DNA of 64,000 nt, taken from contig CAWHUF010000005.1 of the NCBI GenBank assembly GCA_963832495.1, positions 1,813,766-1,877,765 of the forward strand. Direction: 5' to 3'. The notes beneath the pieces were generated by a model. That model saw only the letters and a program-made list of their open reading frames with translations. It was not told the origin of the DNA and searched no databases. Position 1 is the stretch's first letter; each line of letters starts with the position of its first letter. The translations under genes and the position numbers were made by a program. The DNA comes from an uncultured Acidobacteriota bacterium. Its GTDB lineage: Bacteria; Acidobacteriota; Thermoanaerobaculia; Multivoradales; UBA5704. Positions 19,328 to 52,910 of this stretch are shown here, one piece after another.

Positions 19328-20725
19328 ATGAGATACGAAGTCGTCACGTTGTGCGCCCTGCTGGCTCTGCCGGCGGCATGGGCCCAGGAGCCGGCGCCCG
19401 CCGAGCCGGTGCAGGAAGAGCAGGCCCAGGAACCCGAGCAGCCACCGACCGTGGAGGAGCGGCTGGACGAGATCGACCAGAAGATCCGCGTCCTCGACCG
19501 CAAGACCGAGCTCGACAAGGAGGCCGCGGCCGAGAAGGCGAAGACCGCCGGCCAGGCCACGGCCGGCAAGGATGGTTTCAACCTCAAGTCCGCCGACGGC
19601 AACTTCCAGCTGAAGCTGCGCGGCTACGTGCAGCTCGACGGCCGGTTCTTCCAGAGCGACGACCAGCGGCCGGGGACCGATACCTTTGCATTGCGCCGGG
19701 TGCGGCCGATCCTCGAAGGCACCGTCTACAAGATCTTCGACTTCCGCATCATGCCCGATTTCGGCGGCGGCCAGACCGTGCTCCAGGACGCCTATCTGGA
19801 AGCCCGGTTCAACCCGGCCTTCCGGGTGCGGGCCGGCAAGTTCAAGCCGCCCGTGGGCCTGGAGCGCCTGCAGTCCGGCACGGACCTGCTGTTCGTGGAG
19901 CGGGCCTTCCCCACGAACCTGGTGCCCAACCGCGACCTCGGCATCCAGCTCGGGGGTGACGTGGCGGGCGGCGTCGCCAACTGGGCCGTGGGCATGTTCA
20001 ACGGTGTGCTCGACGGCGGCAGCGCCGACGGCGATACCAACGACGAAAAGGATTACGCGGCGCGCATCTTTTTCCAGCCGTTCATCGCGGGGAGCGGTCC
20101 GCTCAAGAACCTGGGCTTCGGCGTGGCCGGGAGCACGGGCGAGCAGTCGGGCACGGTGACCGCGCCCAACCTGCCGGCGTTCCGCACACCGGGCCAGCAG
20201 ACGTTCTTCTCCTACCGCACGGACGGCACGGCGGCCAACACCGTGATCGCCGACGGCGACCGCACCCGCTTCTCGCCGCAGGGGTATTTCTACTCCGGCC
20301 CCTTCGGCCTGCTGGCCGAGTACGCGACCTCCAAGCAGGCGGTGCGGCGGGGCACGGACGCGCGCGACCTGGAGCACAAGGCCTGGCAGGTGGCGGCCTC
20401 GTGGGTGCTCACGGGCGGTGAGCCCACCTTCCGGTCGGTCAATCCCAAAAAGGTTTTCGATCCGGCGGCCGGCACCTGGGGTGCTTTCGAAATCGCCGCG
20501 CGGTATCACAAGCAGGAGCTCGACGACGAGACCTTCCCGGCCTTCGCCAACATCGCCAGCTCAGCCTCGGCGGCCGAAGCCTGGGCGGTGGGCTTCAACT
20601 GGTATTTCAACAAGAACCTGCGCCTGCTGTTCGATTACGAGACCACCAGCTTCGAGGGCGGAGCCACGAGCGGCGACCGCGAGGATGAAAAGATTTTGTT
20701 CAGCCGCTTCCAGGTTGCCTTCTAG
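19328..20725 (+). CDS. phosphate-selective porin O/P (OprO/OprP) family anion porin with N-terminal coiled-coil
   Basis: Signal peptide [21 protein letters not shown], an acidic coiled coil ([41 protein letters not shown]), then a beta-barrel with alternating aromatic pattern ending ...[10 protein letters not shown] (C-terminal Phe). Position between cysA and sbp suggests a sulfate/anion porin. Confidence 0.7.
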
Positions 20726-20744
20726 GAAAGGAAACTGTTCAATC

Positions 20745-21746
20745 ATGAAGACCCGTTTCGCTCTACCGCTGCTGACCTTGCTGCTACTGGCCGCCCCGGC
20801 CATAGCGCAGGTCAAGCTGCTCAACGTCTCCTACGATCCGACGCGCGAGCTGTACCAGGAAGTCAACACCGCTTTCGCCAAGCACTGGAAGGCCACCAAG
20901 GGCCAGGACGTCACCGTTCAGCAGTCGCACGGCGGCTCGGGCAAGCAGGCCCGCTCCGTGATCGACGGCCTGGAAGCCGACGTGGTGACTCTCGCGCTCG
21001 CCTACGACGTGGATGCCGTGGCCAAAACCGGGCTGATCGCCAAGAACTGGCTGACGCGCCTGCCCAACAACAGCGCCCCGTATACTTCGACCATCGTTTT
21101 CCTCGTGCGCAAGGGCAACCCCAAGAAGATCAAGGACTGGGACGACCTCGCACGGCCGGGCGTGTCGGTGATCACTCCCAATCCCAAGACTTCCGGCGGC
21201 GCGCGTTGGAACTATCTCGCGGCCTGGGGCTATGCCCTGCGCAAGCTCGGCAACGACCCGGCCAAGGCGCAGGACTTCGTCAAGCGGATCTTCAAGAACG
21301 TGCCGATCCTGGACACCGGTGCCCGCGGCGCGACCGTGACCTTCGTCGAGAGGGAGATCGGTGACGTGCTGATCGCCTGGGAGAACGAGGCCCTGTACTC
21401 CGTCAAGGAGCTGGGCGACAAGGGGGAGTTCCAGATCGTGGCGCCCTCCCTGAGCATCCTGGCCGAGCCGTCCGTGGCCGTGGTGGACAAGGTGGCCGCC
21501 AAGCGCAAGACGGTCCAGGTGGCGACCGCCTATCTCCAGTTCCTCTACACGCCCGAGGGTCAGGAGATCGCGGCCAAGCACTACTACCGGCCGCGCAACC
21601 AGAACGTGGTGGCCAAGTACGCGCAGCAGTTCCCCAAGGTGACGCTCTTTACCATCGACGAGGTCTTCGGCGGCTGGGCCAAGGCGCAGAAGACCCACTT
21701 CGCCGACGGCGGCGTGTTCGACCAGATCTACGGGGCGGGACGCTAG
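20745..21746 (+). CDS. sbp: sulfate ABC transporter substrate-binding protein (Sbp/CysP family)
   Basis: Signal peptide [22 protein letters not shown], then [69 protein letters not shown], the conserved Sbp N-terminus. RBS GGAAAGGAAA. Confidence 0.85.
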
Positions 21747-34561: not shown

Positions 34562-35536
34562 GTGCGCGCCATCCTACCCACCGATCCTTCTGATTCTCCC
34601 AATCCTCAAGCAGGTGACCTCCCCGACCCGGTGCCCGGGCCGGGCGAGGTTCTCGTGGCCGTCGAGGCCGCGGGCCTCAATCACGCCGACCTCCACCAGC
34701 TCCGGGGGCAATATCCGCCGCCGCCCGGCGAGAGCCCGGTGCCGGGCCTGGAGTGCGCCGGCGTCGTGCTGGAGTCGGAGAAGGGAAGCCCCTGGCGGCC
34801 TGGCACGAGGGTCATGGCGTTGGTGGGAGGCGGTGCCCAGGCCACCCGCGCCGCCATTCCCGCGGGACAGCTCATGCCCATACCGGACAACCTGTCGCTG
34901 ATTGAGGGAGCCGCCATCCCCGAGGCCGGCCTCACGTCCTGGGTGAACCTGGTGGTGGAAGGGGGGCTCCAGGCGGGGGAGACGGTGCTGGTGACCGGGG
35001 CCACGGGGGGCATGGGGAGCTTCGCCGCGCAACTCGCCCGCGAGCTGGGGGCACGGGTGCTGGCGGCCGGCCGCAGCCGCGAGCGGCTGGAGCTGCTGCG
35101 CGGGTTGGGGATCGGGGAGGTCTGCCTCGAAGGCGCGAACCTGCCCAGCCAGGTGCGGGACGCCACGGGCGGCCGGGGCGTGGACCTCGTCCTCGACTTC
35201 ACAGGCGGACCCGAGATCGGCAGCCATCTGGCGGCGCTCGCCTATCGCGGGCGGCTGGTGCTGGTGGGGCTGGTGAGCGGCCGCAAGGCGGAGGTGGACC
35301 TGGGGCCCATCCTCAGCCGGCGCCTCAAGGTGATCGGCTCGGTGCTGCGCGCCCGTCCGCGGGAGGAGAAGGCGCGGCTCACGGCGGACTTCGCGGCCTT
35401 CGCCCTGCCGCGCCTGCGCGACGGCCGCCTGCGTCCCGTGGTGGACCGCACCTTCCCCCTGGAGCGGGCCGCCGAGGCCTACAAGGCCCTGGAGCGGGGC
35501 GGCGTGTTCGGCAAGGTCATTTTGACGATGGCGTGA
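34562..35536 (+). CDS. qor: NADPH:quinone oxidoreductase / zinc-independent MDR-family enoyl reductase-like protein
   Basis: GEVLVAVEAAGLNHADL...; cofactor-binding motif VLVTGATGGMGSFAAQLARELGARVLAAGR; ends ...ERGGVFGKVILTMA. Confidence 0.75.
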   Translation: MRAILPTDPSDSPNPQAGDLPDPVPGPGEVLVAVEAAGLNHADLHQLRGQYPPPPGESPVPGLECAGVVLESEKGSPWRPGTRVMALVGGGAQATRAAIPAGQLMPIPDNLSLIEGAAIPEAGLTSWVNLVVEGGLQAGETVLVTGATGGMGSFAAQLARELGARVLAAGRSRERLELLRGLGIGEVCLEGANLPSQVRDATGGRGVDLVLDFTGGPEIGSHLAALAYRGRLVLVGLVSGRKAEVDLGPILSRRLKVIGSVLRARPREEKARLTADFAAFALPRLRDGRLRPVVDRTFPLERAAEAYKALERGGVFGKVILTMA

Positions 35537-37283
35537 CGCCTCCGCCCACTTCCACCTTCCGGCTCAGGTAGGAGGTGGCGGCGCCGAGCTCGTCGCGCAC
35601 CGCGACCGCCACGGTCTGGGCACCGGCCGGCATCTGGAGCGTCAGGGTGTAGAGGTAGAACTGGCCCAGGGCACCCAGGACCTGCTTGCGGGGGATCTGG
35701 ATGGGCACGGGCACCTGCCGCGGGGGCGAGGTGCCGCCCTTGTCGTCGCCGGTGATGACCAGCAGGCGGAGCTTGCCTTCGTAGGAACCCTGCCGGTTCA
35801 CGACGGTCAGCCGGAACATGGGGATCCGGAGGCGGACGGGCACCGTGTAGCTGCCGTCCTCCGACCGGGTGGCATCGCCGATCTCCATGGTGATCTCCAT
35901 GGGGTTGTCCTCAATGCCGTGGACGAGCGCCGCGAGGGTGCGGTCCACGACCCTCTCCGCGAGCGGCTTGTCGCGGTAGCCCTGGCGGTGGCGGACCTTG
36001 AGGCCGGCTTTCCTGACCTTGACCTCGAGCTGGTGCTGGCGGCCGTCGCCCGTGTGGGCGGGCGTGTAGCCCAGGGAGTAGTAGACGGAGAAGTCCTCCC
36101 GCATGCGGCCGAGGTCGGGGAGGAAGTCGTTGACGTTCAGGATGGCCCGGCCGCCCGTGTCCGCGGCCATGGCGGAGAGCGAATTCTGGACGTTGGTGGT
36201 CTGCACCTGGTGGACCGTCATGAGCTGGAGCGCCCGCTCGCCGGGCTCGATCTCCGCGTCGGCCGAGGCGAGTCCCCGGAGGCCGCTGGCCTGGAGGGTG
36301 TAGAAGGTCACCCGGTTGGCGTTGGCGTGCGCCGTGAGATCCGCAAAGCGGTCGGCGACGCCATGCTTCTGGGCGTCGATGAGCGCCTGCTGGGCCGGGT
36401 ATCCGGCGCTCGCGGGCGCCCGGCCCGCCGTGGCGAACGGATCGACGACGACGAGCCCGGAGCTCCCCGCGCCGCCGCCGCAGACTTCGTAGACCACCTG
36501 GTAGAGCTCCTCGCCGGGGGTCATGGGGAGGCCGTCGCTGACGTAGAGCACAGCCTTGCGGCCCGGGATGCCAGCCAGCGAATTGACCAGGAACTTGAGG
36601 GCCCCGAGAGTCCGCAGGACCTCGTTGCGGGTCTGCTGGGCGTAGGTCTCGATGGGCGCCATCATCGCGTAGCTGCAGGGGTCGAGCGCGTTGATCGAGA
36701 ACATGGTGCGCAAGGCCGACCGCCGGTCCTGGTCCAGCTGGATGCCGCCGGGGGTGGCGACCTTCTCGATTTCCTGGAGGGTCTTGTCGAGGGCCGCCGG
36801 ATCGCCGGTGAAGGGCTGGCGCACCTTGAGGCCCAGGTCGTGGGTGGCGAGCATCACCCGGTCGAGGGGGCGGACGTTCCGGGCGAGGAACTGGCGGATC
36901 TGGTTCACGGCGCGCGTGCGGTTCTCCGGCCGCAGGTGGGCGTTGTCGACCAGCACCACCAGGTTCAGCCAGTCGTCCGGGATGGCCTCGGAGGCCGCCG
37001 CCGGAGCGGCCGGAGCCGCGGGCTCCGTGGCAGCGGGCTGAGAGGGGCTGTCCGGAACGGTCCGCGCCACGGCGGCGAAGTTGGTGATCGCGACCGGCTT
37101 GCCGTCTTCCAGGACCTCGAAGTCTTCCTTCCTGAGGCCGGTCACCCGCTTGCCGTCCTTGTCGGTGACGTAGACCTCGACGTTGACGACATTGACCTCC
37201 ACGACATCGCCGAAGGATTGGGAAGCGGCGGGCGCCGGAGGCCAGGTGAACAACAGGAGCAGGAGAGCGAGCCGGATTTTCAT
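35517..37283 (-). CDS. VWFA-related acidobacterial-type domain protein (TIGR03436-like), paralog 1 of 4
   Basis: Signal peptide MKIRLALLLLLFTWPPAPAASQ, then the family-defining N-terminus FGDVVEVNVVNVEVYVTDKDGKRVTGLRKEDFEVLEDGKPVAITNF, a VWA-like alpha/beta body, and a C-terminal beta region. The supplied ORF start (37403) is an N-terminal over-extension. Confidence 0.75.
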   Translation of the reverse strand: MKIRLALLLLLFTWPPAPAASQSFGDVVEVNVVNVEVYVTDKDGKRVTGLRKEDFEVLEDGKPVAITNFAAVARTVPDSPSQPAATEPAAPAAPAAASEAIPDDWLNLVVLVDNAHLRPENRTRAVNQIRQFLARNVRPLDRVMLATHDLGLKVRQPFTGDPAALDKTLQEIEKVATPGGIQLDQDRRSALRTMFSINALDPCSYAMMAPIETYAQQTRNEVLRTLGALKFLVNSLAGIPGRKAVLYVSDGLPMTPGEELYQVVYEVCGGGAGSSGLVVVDPFATAGRAPASAGYPAQQALIDAQKHGVADRFADLTAHANANRVTFYTLQASGLRGLASADAEIEPGERALQLMTVHQVQTTNVQNSLSAMAADTGGRAILNVNDFLPDLGRMREDFSVYYSLGYTPAHTGDGRQHQLEVKVRKAGLKVRHRQGYRDKPLAERVVDRTLAALVHGIEDNPMEITMEIGDATRSEDGSYTVPVRLRIPMFRLTVVNRQGSYEGKLRLLVITGDDKGGTSPPRQVPVPIQIPRKQVLGALGQFYLYTLTLQMPAGAQTVAVAVRDELGAATSYLSRKVEVGGGVTPSSK

Positions 37284-37293
37284 GGGGTCTTTC

Positions 37294-39198
37294 CTAGGGA
37301 TTGACGGCTGCCTTGTTGGCCGGGGGGACGGTGACGGCGCGGGAGAGGAACGAGGCGGTCGAGGCGATCTCGTCCCGCACGCCCAGCGCGACCCGCTGCT
37401 CACCCGGAGGGAGCTGCAGGGTCAGGGTATAGAGATAGAACTGGCCCATGGCCCTCAGCACCTCGTTGCGGGGGATGCTCAGGGGCACCGCCACCTGCCG
37501 CACCGGCGAGGTGGCGCCATCCTGGTTGCGGGTGATCACGAACAGCCTGAGGCTCCCCTGGAAGGTTTCCTCGTGGTTGAGGATCGCCAGCTTGAAGAGG
37601 GGGATCCGGAGCCGGATGGGAACCGCCACGCTGCCCGCGGGTCCGGGGCTGAGGTCGCCGATCTCGACGGAGATGTCGAGCGGGTTGTCCTCGATGTTGT
37701 AGAGGAGGGCCGCGAAGGTGTGGTCGATGACTTTTTCCAGGGGTGTCTTGTCGCGGTAGGTCTGGCGGTACCGCAGCCGCAATCCGGGCCGCTTGACCTT
37801 CACCTCGATCCGGTGCTCCCGGCCGTCGCCGCTGTGGGCCGGGGTGAAGCCGAGCGAATAGAAGCTCAGCGCATCCTCGCGCACCCGGGCGAGGTCGGGC
37901 AGGAATTCGTTGGCGTCGAGGATCGCGCGCCCGCCCGTTTCGTCGGCCAGGAGCTGGAGCGAGTCGCGGTTGCTCGCCCGCAGGGTGGCGCCGATGGAGG
38001 GGAACTGGAACAGCCGGTCCTCCGGTCCGAAGCTGGCATCGGAGGCATCGGAGGCCTGGAGGCCCGGCTGCAGGGTGTAGAGGGTGACCCGGTGCGCGTT
38101 GGCGTGGGCCGCCAGGGACTGGAGGTTCTTGGCGACGTTGTAGCTCTGCGCATCCAGGGGAGCCTGGGAGGCGGCCTGATAGGCGGCGGGACCGATCTCC
38201 CGGGCGTCGAAGACCTGATAGGTGTTGAGGTCCAGAGCGCCACCGGGTTTCGGTGCGCCCCCGCCTCCGCCATCGGTGGTCCTGCCCGCGATTCCCCCCT
38301 GGCTGAACCCGCTCGTACCGCCGCCGCCGCAGAGCTCGACCAGGAACTGGAACGTCTCCTCGCCGGGAGTGAGGGGAATGCCGTCGCTGATGTGGAGCAC
38401 CGCCTTGCGGCCCGGCACGCCGGAGAGCGAGTTGACCAGGAGGGTGAGAGTGCTGAGCGTGCGCAGCACCTCCTGGCGCCGCGCGGAGGCGTAGGTGTGG
38501 GCGGGGTTCGCGATGTTCTGAGGGCAGGGCAGGGGCTCTGGATCGAGGAGCGAGGCCTCCTGGATGGCGAACATGGCCTGCAAGGCCTGCCGCCGGTCCC
38601 GGTTGATGGTGTCGCCCTGCGCCGACAGCTTGCCCAGGCCGTCGAGCGCCTGGACGATGGCCGCCGGGTCGCTGCTGAAGGGGAGCCGCACGTTCAGGCT
38701 GAAGTCGTTGGTGACCACCATCACGCGGTCGCCGGGAGCGAGCTGGCGGGTCAGGAATTCGCGGAGCTGCCGGATGGCGCGGGCGCGGCTGGCCGGGCGG
38801 ATGTTCTGGTTGTCGAAGTAGACCACCAGGCTCCAGGCGTCTTCCGGAGCCCTTGTTGTCGAGGGGGTTGCCGAGGGGGTTGCCGAGGGGGCTCCCGGAG
38901 AGGTCTCCGAAGGCTCGCCGGCCGGTCCAGCGGCGGGCCGCGAAGGCTGGCCGCCGGTCACGGTTTCGAAGTTCGAGATTTCGACCCGCTTGCCGTCCTC
39001 CAGGAGCTCGAAATCCCCCTTGCGGAGGTCGGCCACCCGGTTGCCGGCCTTGTCCGTGACGTAGACCTCGACGTTGACGACGTTGACCTCCACCACCTCG
39101 CCGAAAGTCTGGGGAGCGGCGGGCGGTGCCGCTTTCTGCGCGGCGAAGGTCGGGGTCCAGGCAACCAGCAGGAGCGGAAGAACGGGCAGGACCTTCAT
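37294..39198 (-). CDS. VWFA-related acidobacterial-type domain protein, paralog 2
   Basis: MKVLPVLPLLLVAWTPTFAAQ...FGEVVEVNVVNVEVYVTDKAGNRVADLRKGDFELLEDGKRVEISNF. Intact 634-aa frame. The 10-bp intergenic gap to paralog 1 suggests co-transcription. Confidence 0.8.
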   Translation of the reverse strand: MKVLPVLPLLLVAWTPTFAAQKAAPPAAPQTFGEVVEVNVVNVEVYVTDKAGNRVADLRKGDFELLEDGKRVEISNFETVTGGQPSRPAAGPAGEPSETSPGAPSATPSATPSTTRAPEDAWSLVVYFDNQNIRPASRARAIRQLREFLTRQLAPGDRVMVVTNDFSLNVRLPFSSDPAAIVQALDGLGKLSAQGDTINRDRRQALQAMFAIQEASLLDPEPLPCPQNIANPAHTYASARRQEVLRTLSTLTLLVNSLSGVPGRKAVLHISDGIPLTPGEETFQFLVELCGGGGTSGFSQGGIAGRTTDGGGGGAPKPGGALDLNTYQVFDAREIGPAAYQAASQAPLDAQSYNVAKNLQSLAAHANAHRVTLYTLQPGLQASDASDASFGPEDRLFQFPSIGATLRASNRDSLQLLADETGGRAILDANEFLPDLARVREDALSFYSLGFTPAHSGDGREHRIEVKVKRPGLRLRYRQTYRDKTPLEKVIDHTFAALLYNIEDNPLDISVEIGDLSPGPAGSVAVPIRLRIPLFKLAILNHEETFQGSLRLFVITRNQDGATSPVRQVAVPLSIPRNEVLRAMGQFYLYTLTLQLPPGEQRVALGVRDEIASTASFLSRAVTVPPANKAAVNP

Positions 39199-39207
39199 GG
39201 CTTCCTC

Positions 39208-41120
39208 CTAAGGGCTTACCGCCACGGCCGCTGGTTCTGAAGGCCTGACGGTCACGGCCCGGCTCAGGTAGGACGTAGTGGCGGAGGTGTCGTCCCGTAC
39301 GCCCACGGCCACCTTCTGCTCGCCGGGAACGAGGTTGAGAGTCAGGGTGTAGACGTAGAACTGGCCGAGGGCGTGCAACACGTCATCCTTCGGGATCCGG
39401 ACCGGCACCGGCACCTGCTTGACCGCCGACGCGCGGCCATCCACCGTGCGGGTGGCCACCAGCACGCGCAGGTTCCCCTCGTAGACGCCGTCTCCCCGGA
39501 GCACGGCCACCTTGGCCAGCGGGATGCGCAGGCGCACGGGAAGGGCCACGGTGCCGGAGGGGCCGGGGGACTGCTCGCCCAGCTCCATCTCGATCTTCAG
39601 CGGGTTGTCCTCGATGTCGTAGAGCAGGGCGGACAGAGTGCGGTCCACGGCCCTTTCGATGGGAGTCTTGTCGCGGTAGCTCTCGCGGTAGCGGAGCTTG
39701 GCGCCCTTGCGCCTGACCCGCACCTCGAGCCGGTGCTCGCCGCCGGCCGCCTTGTGGTTGGGGGTGAAGCCGAGGGAGTAGTAGCTCTCGAAGTCCTCCC
39801 GCATGCGCGCCAGCTCGGGCCTGAAGTCGTTGACGTCGAGCATGGCCCGGCCGCCCGTGCCGTCGGCCATGGCGTAGAGCGAGTTCTGGAGGCTCGCCCG
39901 CTGGGCCGTGCCGATCGAGGCGAACTGGAACAGCCGGTCCGTGGTGCCGGCCGCGGCGTTGGAGGCGGCGGGCGCCTCGGCGCCCGAGGCCTGGAGCGTG
40001 TAGAGCGTGACCCGCTGGGCGTTGGAATGAGCCACCAGGGCACCGAGCTGCTTCACCAGGGTGTAGGTCTGGGCGTCGATGGGCGCCTGCGAGCCGGCCT
40101 TGTAGGACCAGGGGCCGAGCGCCGCCGCGTCATAGACCGCCAGGGGATCCAGGGAGGGCTGCCGCGGGTTCCGGTTGAGGACCCGGCCGTCTTCACCGGG
40201 CTCATCATCCTTGAGAATTTCCGTCTCCTGGGTGTTGCCCGGGGTGCTCCGTCCGAGGCCGGCTGAGCTGCCGCCGCCGCAAAGCTCCGCCAGGAACTGG
40301 AAGACCTCCTCGCCCGGGGTGGCCGGAATGCCGTCGCTGACGTACAGCACGGCCTTGCGGCCCGGCACGCCGGAGAGCGAGTTCACCAGCACGGTGAGAG
40401 AGCCCAGGGTCCGCGTCACCTCGTCGCGGCGGATCTGGGCGAATTCGTGGGCGGGCCTGGCGATTTCCAGAGGGCAGGGCCGCGGGTTCGTGAAGTCGGC
40501 CACCGACGCTTCCTGGATGGCCATGACCTCCCGGAACGCCTGCTGGCGCTGCAGGTCGATGGCGGCGCCGCCCGTCGCGAGCTTTTCGATTTCCGCCAGG
40601 GCCGTGCCCACGGCCGCCGGATCCGAGGTGAAGGGGAGCCGCACGGTGAAGCCCTGTTCGTAGCTCACCACCATCACCCGGTCCCGGGGGCGAGCTCCCG
40701 GCCCAGGAAGTCCCGGAGCTGCTGCAGGACCCGCGTGCGGTTGCCAGGGTGGAGATTGAAGTTGTCGACGTAGACGATGAGGTTCCAGAGGTCCTCGGGA
40801 GCGGCAGCGGCGGCCGCCTCTTCGGCCGCCGGGCGCGCGGGCGGTGTTTCCTCCCCGTCCTCCCTGGAGACGCCCGCCACGACGGCGGCGAAGTTGGAGA
40901 TGTCGATCCGCTTGCCGTCCTCGAACAGCTCGAAGTCCCGCTTCCGCAGGCCCGTGATGGGCTTGCCGTTCGCGTCCGTGACGCGGACGTCGACGTTGAC
41001 GACGTTGATCTCCACCACTTCCGTGAAGGAGGGGGGATCGAGCATCGTCGCGGACTGAGCGGTGGCGAGTGCCGGAACCCAGAAGGCCGGCAGGAGCAGG
41101 AAACCCGGGTGGAATTTCAT
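39208..41120 (-). CDS. VWFA-related acidobacterial-type domain protein, paralog 3 (one frameshift at about 40680 in a G-run)
   Basis: N-terminal piece 40674..41120 (MKFHPGFLLLPAFWVPALATAQ...FTEVVEINVVNVDVRVTDANGKPITGLRKRDFELFEDGKRIDISNF...LAPG) joins C-terminal piece 39208..40677 (...MVVSYEQGFTVRLPF...) across ccggggg. Confidence 0.7.
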
Positions 41121-41146
41121 GGCAAAATCTCCCTCAGGGACTGACC

Positions 41147-43062
41147 TCAGGGACTGACGGCCACGGCCGCCCTGTCCGAAGGCATGACGGTTACGGCCCG
41201 GCTCAGGTAGGACGTGCTGGCGGAGGTATCGTCCCGCACGCCGATGGCCACCTTCTGCTCGCCGGGAGCCAGATTGAGAGTCAGAGTGTAGACGTAGACC
41301 TGGCCGAGGGCGTGCAGGACCTCGTTCCTCGGGATCCGGACCGGCACCGGCACCTGCTTGACCGCCGAGGCGCGGCCGTCGGCCGTGCGGATGGCCACCA
41401 GAACGCGCAGGTTCCCCTCGTAGACGCCGTCGCCCCGGAGCACGGCCACCTTGGACAGCGGGATGCGCAGGCGTACGGGAAGGGCCACGGTGCCGGAGGG
41501 GCCGGGGGACTGTTCGCCCAGCTCCATTTCGATCTTCAGCGGATTGTCCTCGATATCGTAGAGCAGGGCGGCCAGGGTGCGGTCCACGACCCTTTCGATG
41601 GGGGTCTTGTCGCGGTAGCTCTCGCGGTAGCGGAGCCGGGCGCCCTTGCGTTTGACCCGCACCTCGAGCCGGTGCTCGGCGCCGGCCGTCTTGTGATCGG
41701 GAGTAAAGCCGAGAGAGTAGTAGCTCTCGAAGTCCTCCCGCATGCGCGCCAGCTCGGGCCTGAAATCGTTGACGTCGAGCATGGCCCGTCCGCCCGTGCC
41801 GTCGGCCATGGCATAGAGCGAATTTTGGAGGCTCGCCCGCTGGGCCGCGGCGATCGAGGCGAACTGGAACAGACGTTCCAGGGGGCCGGCCGCGGCGTTG
41901 GAGGCCGCCGGCGCCTCGGCGCCCGAGGCCTGAAGAGTGTAAAGGGTGACCCGCTGGGCATTGGCGTGGGCCACCAGGGCATTGAGCTGCTTGATCACGC
42001 TGTAGCCCTGGGCGTCGAGGGGCGCCTGGGAGACGGCCTTGTAGGCCCAGGGTCCGAGCGCCGACGTGTCGTAGACGGCCAGCGGGTCCAGTTCCTGGGA
42101 CTGGCCGGCTGGAGGGCCGCCGCCTCCCCCTTCGCCGTCACCATCTCCATAGTCGTTCTCCGGCGCGTTGCCTCGGTTGCTCTGCCCCAGGCCGGCCGTG
42201 GGGCCACCACCGCAGAGCCCGCCAGGAACTGGAAGACCTCCTCCCCGGGGACGGCCGGGATGCCGTCGCTGACGTAGAGCACGGCCTTGCGGCCCGGCAC
42301 GCCGGAAAGCGAGTTCACCAGAACGGTGAGGGAGCCCAGGCTCCGCAGCACTTCGTCGCGGCGGAGCTGGGCGTAATCGTGGGCCGGCCTGGCAATGTCG
42401 AGAGGACAGGGCTTCGGCTGAGGGTCGGCGAGCGAAGCTTCCTGAACGGTCATGATCTGCCGGAATGCATGCTGGCGGTCGGTGTCGCTGGAGCTGCCAC
42501 GCGTGGCGAGCTTCTCTGTCTGTGTCAGAGCCGCGCTGACGGCCGCGGGATCCGAGGTGAAGGGGAGCCGCACGGCGAGGCCCAGGTCGTAGCTCACCAG
42601 CATCACCCGGTCCCGGGGCCTGAGCTCCCGGCCCAGGAAGTCGCGGAGTTGCTTCAGCACCCGCGCCCGGTTGCCGGGGCGGAGGTTGAAGTTGTCGACG
42701 TAGACGATCAGGTTCCAGGCATCCTCGGGGCTCGCAGCAACCGAGGGGGAGGGGGCCTCTGCCGCTGCCGAGGAGGGCGCGGGCGTCTCCTCCCGGTCCT
42801 CACTGGAGATTCCTCTCTCGACGGCGGCGAAGTTGGCGATGTCCACCCGCTTGCCATCCTCGAACAGCTCGAAGTCCCTCTGCCGCAGGCCGGTGATGGG
42901 CTTGCCATCCGCGTCCGTGACGCGGACGTCGACGTTGACGACGTTGACGTCCACCGCTGCCGTGAAGGAGGGCGGATCGAGCATCTCCTCCTGCGCAGCT
43001 GCAAGCCCCGGGAGGCCGCAGACCAGAGACAGGAACAGGGCACAGGCAAGTGGGGCTTTCAC
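41147..43062 (-). CDS. VWFA-related acidobacterial-type domain protein, paralog 4 (at least 2 frameshifts, about 42000 and about 42230)
   Basis: MKAPLACALFLSLVCGLPGLAAAQ...FTAAVDVNVVNVDVRVTDADGKPITGLRQRDFELFEDGKRVDIANF. The central ~60 codons of the supplied ORF read as frame-garbage, while the 41147..41998 piece is >85% identical to paralog 3. Confidence 0.65.
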
Positions 43063-43134
43063 GGTCGAGCCCCTCCCCGAAGCAGGATTGAATTTTCCTC
43101 AAAGAAGATATGCAAGGTGTGATCCATCCCCCGC

Positions 43135-44193
43135 TCAGAGGGGAGTGGCGACCGGAATGTCCTCCGCAGAAGACGGTCCGATCTCTTTTCGTGGCCGGTC
43201 CGGCAGGCGCCTCCAGAGCACGAGGGTGAGCCCGAGGCCGAGCAGGGTCAACACCACGCTCCCCTCGGGACCGAAGGAGCCGCCGGTCAGCCTCTCGTCC
43301 CCTGAAAGGGACACGTCCAGCAGGTGGAAGAGGCGGATGCCGCTCACCGGCACCGACAGCAGGCAGGCGACGGCGAAGTTCCAGAAGCCGTGGGCGACCG
43401 TCGCTCCCCACAGGCTGCCGCTGCGCTCGACCAGGGCGGCCAGGATGAGGCCGGCCAGGATGATGTTGAACAGGGCGATCACGGAGACATTGGGGTTGAG
43501 CGCGTGGAGCAGGGAGAACAGCACCGAGGAGGCGAGCGCCGCCCAGAACGGCTGCCAGCGCTCCTTGAGGGCATGGTAGATGTAGCCCCGCACGATCCAT
43601 TCCTCCAACCCCCCCTGGAGCAGGAAGAGGACCAGCAGGAGCACCAGGAGGAGCACCGGCGGCAGGGGCCACCAGGCGGGGCCGGCCGAAAACGCCGGGC
43701 TCAGGCCGCCGAAGAGGATCGCTCCGAGGTTCGCGGGGAGGGCGAGGATCAGGAGAACCCAGCTCCCGAGCAGGGCCAGGACTCCGAGGGGCATGGTGGC
43801 GAGCTGCCGCAGAGCCCTCCTCCTGCCCTCCGGCCAGCGGGCCCCGATGCTGGCGAGATTCCGCCGGTCGAGATAGTGGACGAACAGCCAGGTCAACCCC
43901 AGGAGCGGCGGCACCTGAAGGGCGACGCCGAGCAGCAGGAGCTCGTTCGCCTGCCCGATCCCCCCTTCGCGAAAAGCCGAGTCCCTCAACAGGTAGGCGG
44001 CGGCCGTGAAGAGCACACCCAGGACGACCTCGACGGCAAAGTAGGCCAGGAGGTAGAGGCCCGCGCGGACCACGGGGTGCCAGCGGGGCCGCGGCGGAGC
44101 CGGTGCTGTCTCGAGGGGAGGGGATGGCGGGAGCGATGGAGACGGGTTTTCCAAACTGGCGTCCTCCGGGGTTTTCTCCAGGTGAAGGGACAT
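43135..44193 (-). CDS. CPBP-family (CAAX-protease/Abi) intramembrane metalloprotease
   Basis: Multi-TM protein with motif 1 EEWIVRG (E-E-x3-R), motif 2 FSLLH, and motif 3 HGFWN. It lies immediately upstream, on the same strand, of the four VWFA-related paralogs. Confidence 0.75.
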   Translation of the reverse strand: MSLHLEKTPEDASLENPSPSLPPSPPLETAPAPPRPRWHPVVRAGLYLLAYFAVEVVLGVLFTAAAYLLRDSAFREGGIGQANELLLLGVALQVPPLLGLTWLFVHYLDRRNLASIGARWPEGRRRALRQLATMPLGVLALLGSWVLLILALPANLGAILFGGLSPAFSAGPAWWPLPPVLLLVLLLVLFLLQGGLEEWIVRGYIYHALKERWQPFWAALASSVLFSLLHALNPNVSVIALFNIILAGLILAALVERSGSLWGATVAHGFWNFAVACLLSVPVSGIRLFHLLDVSLSGDERLTGGSFGPEGSVVLTLLGLGLTLVLWRRLPDRPRKEIGPSSAEDIPVATPL

Positions 44194-44325
44194 TCTATGC
44201 CGGTGGTTGTCCCCGTCGTCCCCCGTTGGCCCGGCCGCTTGGGGGTGTTTGTGGCACGCGAGTTGCTATCTACGAAAAGCCGGGGAGAGAAACAGACTTA
44301 AACGTCTAACCTAAGGAGGATCGTC

Positions 44326-44598
44326 ATGATTAACCTCATTCTCATTCTGATCGTCGGTGGCCTCATCGGGTGGATCGCCAGCATCGTGATGCGCACGAAC
44401 GCCCAGCAGGGCGTCCTGCTCAACGTCGTCGTCGGCATCGTCGGCGCTCTGCTCGCCGGCTTCCTGCTCGCCCCTCTGTTCGGCACGGGCAACATCACCT
44501 CGGGTGACTTCAGCCTGCCGGCTCTGCTCGTCTCGCTGCTGGGGGCGGTCGTCCTGCTCGCCATCGTCAACCTGTTCCGCCGTGGCGCGGTTCGCTGA
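44326..44598 (+). CDS. GlsB/YeaQ/YmgE-family (transglycosylase-associated) small membrane stress protein
   Basis: RBS AAGGAGGA, then MINLILILIVGGLIGWIASIVM...GVLLNVVVGIVGALLAGFL, the canonical family sequence. Confidence 0.8.
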   Translation: MINLILILIVGGLIGWIASIVMRTNAQQGVLLNVVVGIVGALLAGFLLAPLFGTGNITSGDFSLPALLVSLLGAVVLLAIVNLFRRGAVR

Positions 44599-44731: not shown

Positions 44732-45979
44732 TTACATTGCCGGGGTGCGGGTGCTCTTCAAGGCCTTCCGGACCCCTTCCGGAGTCGTCAGCTCCTGTTC
44801 CACGAGGACATCGCGGATCCACTGCGCAGCCATCTGGTTGCCGGCTCTGGGGTAGTGGAGGAAGTTCTTCTTCGCCATCTCCGCCTCGGGGTCATAACGC
44901 GCGAAACCATCCGCTAGATCGATCACGCGATACCCCCGGCGCCGCAGATCGTCGAGGAGCGGCTGATAGGTGACCTTCTCGCCCTCATGGCGCAGGCGCA
45001 CGTCCCGCCGCTGCGGAAAGAGGACGATCACGGGCAGAGACCCGTTGCCCAGGGCCTCGCGGTAGAACTGATCGAGCACCCGGAAGCTCACCTGGTAAGC
45101 CTCCGAGCGGGTGTTGTAAAGGCCGTTCGGCAGCAGGATGGGCTGGTTGAAATACTGGTTCCCGACCACCCGCGCAAAACGTACCGAGGGCAGGAAGTCG
45201 AAGCGGCTCCGCCGGTTGTTGCGCTGGTAGTAGTAGTCATGCTCGCCCAGGCGCGGCAGCCAGGCTTCCGGATCTTTCAGGAGGGCGCGGTACTCGCCGA
45301 TCGACCGGATGGGATTTTCGTGCAGCACCAGCTCGCCGCCTTGGATGGCGAAGCGGGGCTTGCTGAAGGGCAGGCCGCTCCTGGCGAAGTAGAACGGCCG
45401 GAAGGTGTTGACCATCCGGCTGATGTTCTCGCGACATCATGCCGATGAGCACGATGGGCGGGCGGTACGGCTCGCCCTCGCGCCGGTAGCGCAGCAGGGC
45501 CTGATCCGGGGCCGAGCCGGGGATGCCGAAGTTGATCACCTCCAGCCCCGGCTCCAGCTCCTCCAGCCGCTCCTCCCAGGTGAAGCCCGTGGGTACCCCG
45601 CTCGCGTGGGTGAAGGAGTCGCCGAAGGCCGCGACGCGCACACGGTCCGCCGGCGGCGCCGGACGCGTACTCCCGGGTGGCCCGGATCCCCTTGCTGTTG
45701 GCCTTGTACTGAGGCCGGTTGCCGTTAGGACCGGATGGTCCACCCCAGCTCCGGGTCGAACATCATGTAGGACGAGGTGTCGGCGATCTGGGCCTCCAGG
45801 ATGCCCCGGTGCTTGCCGCTCAGGTCTTCGACCGCGGTGGGCTTCTGGTATTCCAGGTTCTTGTACCGCTTGAGCGCCCAGAGGCCGCCCAGGCAGGCGA
45901 GCTCCACCACCAGCCAGAAAAAGGCGAGGAGGATGAGTGAGAACAGGGCCTTCTTGCGAGGGGAGATCGTCGCGGCCAT
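44732..45979 (-). CDS. membrane-anchored SGNH/GDSL-type hydrolase (AlgX/AlgJ-like esterase/acyltransferase fold), multiple frameshifts
   Basis: N-terminal TM anchor MAATISPRKKALFSLILLAFFWLVVELACLGGLWAL. Block I VRVAAFGDSFTHASGVP. The C-terminal part ...LPVIVLFPQRRDV...GYRVIDLADGFARYDPEAEMAKKNFLHYPRAGNQMAAQWIRDVL sits in a third frame. Pieces are distributed over ORFs 45725..46324, 45237..45992 and 44732..45415. Confidence 0.5.
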
Positions 45980-46112
45980 AGGGAGCGCGCATTCTACCCG
46001 ATGCCGCAGCAAGGGCTTGGCATCAGGAGGGAGCCGATCCTGACAGCCAGCAGGTTTGAGACGGGAGCTTGCATTGATTCTCCAGGCATATTGACGTACA
46101 GTAATAAGCAGG

Positions 46113-46508
46113 TTGTCGCAGCTCAGATTTGAAGGAGGCTTCATGCAGCTCCAGCCCAAGATCCGCCGTTTCCCTCGCATCCCGGCCGAGCACGCGGTCA
46201 TGGTCCGCCTCCTTGGAGTGAAGGCCTTCGAGGAGTTCGCCCGCACGCGGGTGATCGGTCCCGGGGGGTGTATGTTCGTGAGCGAGGAGTCGCTCGGCTT
46301 CGGCTCGCTCATGGAGCTGTCCATCGCGGTGCGCGGCCGGGTGGTGAAGACGGACAGCCGGGTCGTCTACGAGATCCGCAGGAGCCCGACCGAGCACCAG
46401 GTGGGCGTCGAGTTCCTGCGCATCAGCCCGGCGGACCGCTCGTACATCGAGTTGGTCGTGGCGGGCCGCAAGAGCGGCGGCACGGCTCCGGTCAGCCTGC
46501 CAGCCTGA
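46113..46508 (+). CDS. PilZ-domain (c-di-GMP-binding) protein
   Basis: RRFPR (RxxxR) motif followed by the D/N-x-S-x-G-G-like VIGPGGCMFVSEESL motif, in a 120-130 aa single-domain protein. Confidence 0.6.
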   Translation: MSQLRFEGGFMQLQPKIRRFPRIPAEHAVMVRLLGVKAFEEFARTRVIGPGGCMFVSEESLGFGSLMELSIAVRGRVVKTDSRVVYEIRRSPTEHQVGVEFLRISPADRSYIELVVAGRKSGGTAPVSLPA

Positions 46509-49265: not shown

Positions 49266-50389
49266 CTACTGCGGTAATCCCCTTCCTGTCACCAGATAGG
49301 TCGCGAAGCTCCCCAGCCAGTGGCCGCCCTCGTAGTGCTCGCCGGTCACGGACGCCAGGCCCGACTCCCGGTGGGCGGCGGCCGCGGCGCGCAGGGCCGG
49401 CAGGCGGGGATCGCTCGAGGGCAGGCCGGCGGTGATCCCCTCCAGCATCCAGGCCCGGGAGAGGTTGAGGCCGTCCAGGTGGGCGAGCTTGCCGTCCGTG
49501 GGATCGGTGACAACGGCGGGCGTGAGCCAGTCCCTGGCCGTCGCCGAATCTGCGGCAGGAAGGCGGAGAGCCAGGTGGCGAATTCTCCGGTGGGCAGGAT
49601 CCGGCGCATCAGGTCGGCCTCGCCGAGGCAGGGGGAGAGGAAGTCCTCGCCCGAGGGCTCGTAGGCGAGCGGGCAGGCCTTGTCTTTGCCGATAGAGCTC
49701 GCGGGCGCGCGTCTCGAAGAGGGTCTGCGCGTCCCGGTCGCCGGATCCCCGCGCCCAGTCGAGCATCAGGCCGAAGCGCGAAGGCGGTCTGGTTGTGCTC
49801 GCCCGTGCGGATGGGGTGGGAGAGCTTGGGCAGCCACGTCCGGATGCGCCCCGCCGCGGCCTTGACCAGCGGCTCCAGCGCCTCGGCCCAGCGCGCGGGC
49901 CTGGGGATCGTCCCACTCGCGGAGCTCGGCCGCGAGCTGGAGCAGCCAGGCGAGGCCGTAGGGCCGCTCGAAGGTCGCTCGTCCCGTGCCCTCCAGATAG
50001 CGCACCTCGGCCGCGATGTTGGCGGCCGTGAGGCTCTTGTCGAGCGCCTCCCGGGCCTTGGCCGCGAACGGCGCGTCGGGGAACTGGCGGGCCAGCCGCG
50101 CCAGCAGCCAGTGGCCGTGCACGGCCGAGTGCCAGTCGTAGCAGCCGTAGAAGGCGGGGGTCAGCTCGCGCGGCGGCTTGACGTCGGCGTCGCCGTTCAT
50201 CACGTGGGCGATCTTGTTCGGATACTCCTTGTGGACGCAGGCGAGCGCCAGGTTGGCGAGACGCTCGGCCGGCGGCCTCGATGGAGCGGGGGTGGCAGGG
50301 TACGGCGGCGGCCATGACCGGCAAGAGGAGAGCAGCGGCGAGAAGCAGGGAGAGCCCGTCGGAGGATCATGGCCGCAGGATGGTACCAT
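49266..50389 (-). CDS. DUF2891-family protein (at least 3 frameshifts)
   Basis: N-terminal piece (49766..50389 frame) ...RLANLALACVHKEYPNKIAHVMNGDADVKPPRELTPAFYGCYDWHSAVHGHWLLARL...; C-terminal piece (49266.. frame) ...DWLTPAVVTDPTDGKLAHLDGLNLSRAWMLEGITAGLP...VTGEHYEGGHWLGSFATYLVTGRGLPQ*. The middle lies in a third frame. Confidence 0.5.
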
Positions 50390-51129: not shown

Positions 51130-52910
51130 ATGCGGGCCAATTTGCGGCTTCCATTGTCATTGATCACTCTCTTGCTGGTTTCCACCGCCGCCTGGGCCGC
51201 CGACAAGCCCAAGGACGACCTCCAGGCGCGGCGCGACGCCCTGAACAAGCTGCTCGCCGAGCAGTGGGAGTACAACCTCTCCACCTCCCCCGAGTTCGCC
51301 TCCATCCTGGGCGACAAGCGCTGGAACGACCAGATCTCCGACTTCTCCCAGGCCGCGATCGACGCGGACCTCGCCAAGTCGCGCGAGTTCCTGACGCGGT
51401 TCGAGGCCATCGACACCACCGGCTTCCCCGAGCAGGAGGCCCTCAACAAGGAGCTGATGGTGCGGGGCCTGAAGGAGGGGATCGAGGGCGCCAGATTCAA
51501 GGGCTGGCTGATGCCGGTGACCCAGATCTCCGGCATCCACCTGATGGTCCCCCAGTTCCCGCCGCTGCTCAGCTTCACCACCGTCAAGGACTACGACGAC
51601 CTGATCACCCGCTACAGGAAGATCCCCAGGGTCTTCGACCAGACGATCGGGCACATGCGCGCGGGCATGGCCGCCGGCCTGATGCCGCCCAAGTTCCTGC
51701 TGGAGAAAGTCGTGGGGCAGGTCGAAGGGATCGCCGCCATGAGCCCGAGCAGTCGCCCTTCGCCGAGCCGCTCGCCAAGTTCCCCAAGGACATCCCCGAG
51801 GCCGAGCAGAAGCGCATCCGCGAGGAGATGCTCGCTGCGATCCGCGACTCGATCCTCCCGGCCTACGCCAGTTCGGCAAGTTCGTGAAGGAGGAGTACCT
51901 CGCCCAAGGGCCGCACCGAGCCCGGCATGTGGTCCCTGCCCGACGGCGAGGCCCGCTACGCCTGGGCCGTCCAGCAGTCCACGACCACGAAGCTGACGCC
52001 GGAGGAGATCCACCAGATCGGCCTGCGCGAGGTGGCGCGGATCGAGGGCGAGATGCTGGAGATCGCGAAGAAGCTCGGCTACCAGGACCTCAAGAGCTTC
52101 AACGCCGCGATCGAGGACGATCCCAAGCTGAAGGCCCGGTCGCGCCAGCACATCCTCGATCTCTACCGGAAGTACATCGACCAGATGTACACCAAGCTGC
52201 CGGAGCTGTTCGGCCGCCTGCCCAAGGCCAAGGTCGAGGTGCTGCCGGTCGAGGAGTTCCGCGAGAAGGAGGCCGCGGGCGCCCAGTACAACCCGGGCAC
52301 GCCGGACGGCTCGCGGCCCGGCCGGGTGATGGTGAACACGGGCGACGCCACCTCGCGCAAGACCATCTCCATGGAGTCCACCGCCTACCACGAGGGCGTG
52401 CCCGGCCACCACATGCAGCTCACGATCGCCCAGGAGCTGCCCGAGCTGCCGCCGTTCCGCCAGCAGGGGGGCTACACCTCCTTCGCCGAAGGCTGGGCCC
52501 TCTACTCCGAGCGCCTCGGCAAGGAGGTCGGCTTCTATCAGGATCCCTACAGCGACTACGGCCGCCTGCAGGACGAGATGCTGCGCGCCATCCGCCTCGT
52601 GGTGGACACCGGCTTCCACTACAAGCGCTGGACCCGCGACCAGGTGGTGCAGTTCTTCCACGACCACTCGGCCATCGACGAGGTCGACGTGCAGAGCGAG
52701 ACCGACCGCTACATCGTCTGGCCCGGCCAGGCCCTCGCCTACAAGATCGGCCAGCTCAAGATCCTGGAGCTGCGCGAGCGGGCGAAGAAGGAGCTGGGCG
52801 CGAAGTTCGACATCCGCGAGTTCCACGACGAGGTCCTGGGCGCCGGCGCGCTGCCGCTCGACGTGCTGGAGGAGCGGATCGACGCGTGGATCGCGGCGGA
52901 GAAGGGGTAG
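51130..52910 (+). CDS. secreted DUF885-family protein (two frameshifts around 51740-51930)
   Basis: Signal peptide MRANLRLPLSLITLLLVSTAAWAADKP. DUF885 N-terminal helical region. C-terminal part has YHEGVPGHHMQL (HE..PGHH) and ...IVWPGQALAYKIGQLKI. Confidence 0.65.

Follow-up and report, generated by a model that had tools for sequence, protein, structure and literature searches.

A CPBP-type intramembrane protease gene and four tandem VWFA-related paralogs in a conserved acidobacterial locus

The window analyzed here is a stretch of 64,000 nucleotides from contig CAWHUF010000005.1 of an uncultured member of the Acidobacteriota (class Thermoanaerobaculia). Its minus strand carries a gene for a CPBP protease, followed by four tandem genes for secreted proteins of the VWA-type family TIGR03436, which we refer to as paralogs A–D. 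An initial annotation of this DNA had already recognized this layout and both families; it is amended here in that paralogs A and B each contain a frame-breaking 1-nt deletion and that paralog D is assigned a start at position 37283. From upstream to downstream, the operon and its borders comprise the following features.

44302–44598, plus strand: divergent Transgly_assoc gene (GlsB/YeaQ/YmgE-like), the upstream bound of the operon
44192–44301, minus strand: operon upstream intergenic region, holding a conserved CATAGAATG element (15-locus alignment)
43135–44193, minus strand: CPBP/Rce1-like glutamic intramembrane protease gene (PF02517), 352 amino acids, gene 1 of the operon
41147–43062, minus strand: paralog A (A-type), assembled as open reading frames (ORFs) 41995–43062 and 41147–41998, TIGR03436 on both
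39208–41120, minus strand: paralog B, assembled as ORFs 40674–41120 and 39208–40677, TIGR03436
37294–39198, minus strand: paralog C (C-type), intact, 634 amino acids, TIGR03436
35517–37283, minus strand: paralog D (D-type, last-copy clade in a neighbor-joining tree), intact, 588 amino acids from ATG 37283, TIGR03436
34562–35536, plus strand: convergent zinc-type dehydrogenase/quinone oxidoreductase (QOR) gene, the downstream bound of the operon

With a divergent gene on one side and a convergent gene on the other, the unit consists of the CPBP gene plus four paralogs only, with no other gene in between. The 3′ end of paralog D shares 20 nt with the QOR gene, which is followed by an acyl-CoA dehydrogenase (ACAD) gene. 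The gaps in the order CPBP–A–B–C–D are ∼72, 26, 9, and 10 nt, in agreement with the operon-like spacing noted initially, and a scan with a terminator consensus found no terminator-like site within the operon. The CPBP gene is probably co-transcribed with the paralogs. Elsewhere in the window, we found no further TIGR03436-type family member, and neither an Rfam nor a tRNA scan returned an RNA gene from the window.

Assignment of the paralogs to TIGR03436 (acidobact_VWFA), as proposed in the initial annotation, is borne out by the NCBIfam model, which has a cut-off of 81.25 bits. Paralogs C and D score 185.3 and 220.3 bits, respectively. The two fragments of paralog A score 125.1 and 75.3 bits and cover model positions 4–191 and 198–321, and those of paralog B score 66.7 and 107.2 bits and cover positions 5–100 and 105–321. 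Pfam yields only VWA_2, below threshold. The conserved N-terminal module described initially is found in 4 of 4 paralogs. Close homologs carry the names “VWA domain-containing protein” (NCBI) or “VWFA-related protein” (JGI), and a literature search on TIGR03436, on acidobacterial “VWFA-related” proteins, or on CPBP together with von Willebrand yielded no relevant paper.

Paralogs A and B are interrupted in the assembled sequence. Three-frame translation and DNA alignment to the sister copies locate one missing base near 42218/42219 in paralog A, where the site reads GGCGG-GCTC, and one in a C run near 40689/40690 in paralog B. Inserting one base per site gives full-length proteins of 638 (A) and 637 (B) amino acids, which align end to end with paralogs C and D. 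Taken at face value, the two single-base deletions would mean that the array is decaying, with A and B as true pseudogenes and only C and D functional, a reading that we regard as improbable. Both genes are otherwise free of internal stops and retain all conserved positions, and several conserved neighbors are broken as well. By tblastn with proteins of a related locus, a GDSL-like lipase gene (44735–45973, minus strand) is spread over three frames, and a DUF2891 gene (49269–50269, minus strand) and a DUF885 gene (51181–52904, plus strand) are frame-broken relative to intact homologs in related loci (tblastn). There are at least four additional frame breaks in conserved neighbor genes within ∼10 kb, corresponding to ∼1 indel per 2–3 kb, and the same type of break occurs in two related loci from long-read-style metagenome-assembled genomes (L001 and L007). 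This suggests that the stretch around the operon comes from an unpolished long-read assembly. Because conserved neighbor genes are also frame-broken, the deletions in A and B are likely assembly errors.

Two gene starts deserve comment. For paralog D, the list of ORFs gives GTG 37403, but the most plausible start is ATG 37283, from which the protein begins with MKIRL and a signal peptide. For the CPBP gene, relatives use as start a TTG-GAA codon pair located further downstream, whose counterpart in the window is CTG-GAG at 44181; the true start may thus be CTG 44181, and the annotated ATG 44193 may be wrong. A GGGAGGGG ribosome-binding site lies 5′ of paralog A.

With the two frames repaired, all four paralogs have signal peptides and the length of ∼600 amino acids expected from the initial annotation. 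They share a common plan: a signal peptide, a β-module of ∼45 amino acids, a proline/alanine/serine-rich linker of ∼30 amino acids that is predicted to be disordered, a VWA domain, and an Ig/FN3-like sandwich. An AlphaFold2 model of paralog C (pLDDT 79) shows the domains in this order, with a small four-stranded β-module at residues 41–81, a low-confidence and presumably disordered linker (residues 84–114), a VWA-type α/β domain at residues ∼122–480, and a C-terminal Ig/FN3-like β-domain (residues 486–625). The VWA-type domain has the Rossmann-like VWA fold, confirming the VWA-like body assigned initially, and carries long helical insertions and a low-confidence loop (residues 298–326). When the family profile was searched against the sequences in the PDB, only marginal VWA matches were returned (E ∼1).

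The metal ion-dependent adhesion site (MIDAS) of VWA domains, a DxSxS motif after strand β1, is not preserved. Paralogs A–D read DNFNL, DNFNL, DNQNI, and DNAHL at this position, and across the 600-amino acid family the motif is D-N-x-N-[IL] (with an N/H variant in D), so that the serines are lost; the later SDG aspartate of the domain is retained. The family model of TIGR03436 shares the N-terminal β-module and VWA body with the paralogs described here, which differ in three ways: an additional Ig/FN3-like domain of ∼150 amino acids lies beyond the model, the MIDAS serines are absent, and the genes form a variable array in a conserved locus.

All 51 family members compared possess a hydrophobic N terminus (median Kyte–Doolittle hydropathy 1.88) and exactly two cysteines past the signal-peptide region, which are invariant and probably pair as a disulfide. 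A lipoprotein signal was rejected upon inspection of the N termini: the lone nearby cysteine (LVCG in paralog A) is preceded by valine at −1. No C-terminal sorting signal (transmembrane segment or cysteine) was found in any of the 51 members (0 of 51), whose last 50 residues contain no cysteine and reach a median maximum 17-residue hydropathy of 0.78. The conserved processing site after the N-terminal module for which the initial annotation proposed to look was not found: the linker is variable, predicted to be disordered, and free of any conserved motif, and the sole conserved stretch near it is “PEDAW,” which leads into strand β1 of the VWA domain.

The CPBP gene product was assessed by its Pfam gathering score and by the EExxxR, FxxxH, and HxxxN motifs. 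It scores 72.2 bits against PF02517 (cut-off 22.4) and contains all three motifs (EEWIVR at 197, FSLLH at 226, and HGFWN at 268), which are unchanged across 25 CPBP orthologs, and the family assignment made initially thus holds. The protein has ∼8 hydrophobic segments, and its orthologs, named as Thermoanaerobaculia CPBP, are 56–87% identical. From these motifs, the protease is predicted to be catalytically intact.

The linkage of the two families was followed by a genome scan with the CPBP ortholog alignment, which covered 12 orthologs from Thermoanaerobaculia/Acidobacteriota (L001–L012) and 68 distant CPBPs, with family members at these loci detected by a hidden Markov model (HMM) built from the four paralogs. 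At 9 of the 12 ortholog loci, one to four full-length paralogs lie immediately downstream of the CPBP gene on the same strand, and the paralog HMM had no match at the 68 distant CPBP loci. In L008 and L009, the CPBP gene adjoins the QOR gene, and there are zero paralogs. Two further homolog look-ups led to the same locus, one of them (L081) with another downstream flank, and a metagenome scan added 11 loci with CPBP and array, as well as two (L090 and L101) in which the array directly follows the Transgly_assoc gene without CPBP. Among 27 informative copies of the locus, including the window, 23 carry both elements, CPBP occurs without the array in two, and the array occurs without CPBP in two; the copy number of the array ranges from 0 to 5.

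The conserved gene order at these loci is DUF3592–GNAT–PilZ–GDSL-like–Transgly_assoc/CPBP–array/QOR–ACAD. In the window, the PilZ-domain gene of this series (46095–46508, plus strand) is flanked by the GNAT and GDSL-like genes and is read from the opposite strand. It overlaps both ORF calls, and this arrangement is conserved in related loci. Since the whole neighborhood is syntenic, the adjacency of CPBP and array is not independent evidence of coupling. On this comparison of gene order, the adjacency appears to recur by common descent only. The link between CPBP and the family that the initial annotation expected elsewhere is therefore real in 23 of 27 loci, but it belongs to one syntenic locus, from which both single-loss states are known, and the family also has contexts free of CPBP.

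These contexts emerged from a phmmer search of 1.8 billion representative proteins, in which 17,114 relatives passed E ≤ 0.001 and 1,442 passed E ≤ 1e-30; many of them are full length (∼560–620 amino acids) with 35–40% identity. Near ∼60 metagenome loci of such relatives, no CPBP was detected with a broad HMM derived from 83 diverse CPBPs; the flanks covered reached up to 10 kb on either side, many contigs being shorter. In the metagenome loci of at least 8 kb (n = 29; L108–L163 set), distant family members also form tandem arrays of up to ∼5 genes in a row. Reading of the translated sequences suggests that this second conserved locus is of a housekeeping type: in the gene order, genes that resemble lgt and a ypdA-like reductase come before the array, and a gene for a small membrane protein and genes that resemble nnr, tsaE, hbd, and phoH come after it. 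The only candidate partner at this locus is the small membrane protein (∼200 amino acids, two transmembrane segments), which is encoded directly downstream of the array in 20 of the 29 long loci. In a third context, found at three loci in Thermoanaerobaculia, a single copy with 37–45% identity to the metagenome relatives is neighbored by tmk–holB–dsbA-like or unrelated genes, and no PF02517 gene occurs within 8 kb of these three loci. Relatives thus occur in tandem arrays without CPBP; therefore, the arrays are a trait of the family, whereas adjacency to CPBP is a trait of one inherited locus.

Taken together, we consider it likely, although by no means certain, that the locus represents a vertically inherited five-gene envelope operon, which joins an intact CPBP protease to four Sec-exported, uncharacterized VWA paralogs of ∼600 amino acids, and in which CPBP is a facultative partner at most. 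The CPBP gene would be co-transcribed owing to shared envelope biology, and the enzyme would not be dedicated to processing the paralogs. The array itself is a copy-number-variable block at a fixed locus, made up of at least three ancient types and a recent duplication. Two observations weigh against this view. First, the adjacency, shared strand, and short spacing persist at 23 of 27 loci, L081 with its changed downstream flank among them, as a functional unit would also show. Second, with ∼56–65% identity, both CPBP and the paralogs have diverged far more than the flanking genes (80–95%), which would fit co-evolution.

The first of these observations (with gaps of 10–100 nt) would equally fit an enzyme–substrate cassette, in which CPBP is dedicated to maturation and acts on the exported paralogs by cleavage or anchoring, for instance within or close to the signal peptide or the linker. 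The intact catalytic motifs are consistent with this idea, and so is a weak, sub-threshold similarity to the sorting proteases MrtJ, MrtS, and Mrt_core. In myxosortase-type sorting, the CPBP proteases MrtX, MrtJ, and MrtS act with MYXO-, JDVT-, and Synerg-CTERM substrates, and the known CPBP sorting systems (Haft) need a C-terminal signal comprising a cysteine motif, a transmembrane segment, and arginine (bioRxiv 10.1101/2023.06.07.544157; PMC11980579). The locus described here resembles these systems in that a CPBP protease gene lies near genes for exported proteins, but the paralogs, unlike myxosortase substrates, lack the tripartite C-terminal signal with its invariant cysteine. Moreover, the scores of the CPBP protein (MrtJ 42.1 bits, cut-off 75; MrtS 27.1, cut-off 130; Mrt_core 26.7, cut-off 100; ABC_perm_CPBP 48.5, cut-off 435) remain at 27–48 bits, far under cut-offs of 75–435. 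Together with the motif-free linker, the syntenic neighborhood, the loci in which either partner occurs alone, which weaken the case for coupling, and two other family contexts without a nearby CPBP, these results make dedicated maturation unlikely. The similarity to protein-maturation arrangements drawn in the initial annotation is thereby reduced to adjacency. A narrower version, in which CPBP is a dedicated maturation or anchoring factor that acts other than via a C-terminal signal on hetero-oligomeric, MIDAS-less VWA–FN3 proteins of the A, C, and D types, for instance by releasing or tethering the N-terminal β-module via the flexible linker, appears less probable still; if true, it would extend the bacterial CPBP proteases to a substrate class and a mode of action that are both new.

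We therefore return to the view of an inherited envelope operon with a facultative protease. On the basis of the fold and the export signals, an extracytoplasmic binding or scaffold role of the paralogs is most likely: they would act outside the cytoplasm as metal-independent protein–protein or matrix-binding scaffolds or adhesins, and the A, C, and D types possibly combine into mixed assemblies. The same pairing of folds in secreted proteins, with VWA ahead of an Ig/FN3-like sandwich, is known from extracellular VWA and FN3 matrix proteins and from FN3-type biofilm scaffolds (e.g., collagen VI VWA domains and RbmA). In contrast, the likeness to the VWA proteins BatA and BatB of the Bat/MoxR operon (Bacteroides aerotolerance) is confined to the fold; the domain architecture differs, and no gene for a MoxR AAA+ ATPase, DUF58 protein, or TPR protein is present among the neighbors scanned.

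The CPBP family name also invites a comparison with CAAX-protease (Abi) bacteriocin immunity or anti-phage defense cassettes, a likeness to the former having been pointed out initially. Apart from this name, nothing in the data favors such a cassette. The nearby genes include no small precursor peptide, C39/ABC exporter, or toxin domain, the genes that actually flank the operon being Transgly_assoc, GDSL-like, PilZ, GNAT, QOR, and ACAD. The partners of CPBP are Sec-exported VWA proteins of 600 amino acids, and PADLOC models had no match to CPBP, paralog C, or paralog D. An immunity or defense function is thus highly improbable and effectively refuted by the content of the neighborhood.

A neighbor-joining tree of 34 copies sheds light on the history of the array. 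First, middle, and last copies cluster by position across loci, with paralog D falling among the last copies of other loci, which indicates that at least three of the paralog types are old. Paralogs A and B form a recent duplicate pair with 79% protein identity. At the DNA level, their 3′ 700 nt (39208–39900 versus 41147–41840) are 88–95% identical, whereas the 5′ part shows 53–91% (mostly 69–86%) identity. This pattern is no more than suggestive of gene conversion between the neighboring copies. In L001, a lone C-terminal piece of a fifth paralog (20340–20846; HMM positions 456–625) lies ∼1.6 kb past a four-copy array and is likely a remnant of array turnover.

Both families at this locus, the CPBP proteases of bacteria and the large TIGR03436 family of Acidobacteria, are abundant and almost uncharacterized. 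A true enzyme–substrate pair would have given each family a testable function; the evidence favors inherited gene order. The analysis defines the architecture of a widespread family of ∼600-amino acid proteins, describes how this family tends to form tandem arrays of variable copy number at fixed loci, and lists loci in which CPBP and array occur apart.

Upstream of the operon, the alignment of 15 loci reveals the conserved, −10-like CATAGAATG element, which spans 44192–44200 (minus strand), with TAGAAT at 44192–44197 immediately ahead of the annotated CPBP ATG or overlapping it, and is found in most CPBP-carrying loci. A scan with a σ70 consensus found no promoter site for the operon, and a promoter role of the CATAGAATG element is thus only putative. 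The same intergenic region contains a perfect σ54-type −24/−12 element, TGGCACGCGAGTTGCT (44252–44267, plus strand), ∼35–60 nt upstream of the Transgly_assoc gene and oriented away from the CPBP operon. It is the single match in the window (0.03 expected by chance), and its core is invariant in 15 of 15 aligned related loci, including the two without CPBP. On the other side, ∼5 kb past the array, an ORF of 1335 amino acids (26495–30502, minus strand) encodes RTX calcium-binding nonapeptide repeats (HemolysinCabind, 180 bits) and has an atypical codon-position GC content.

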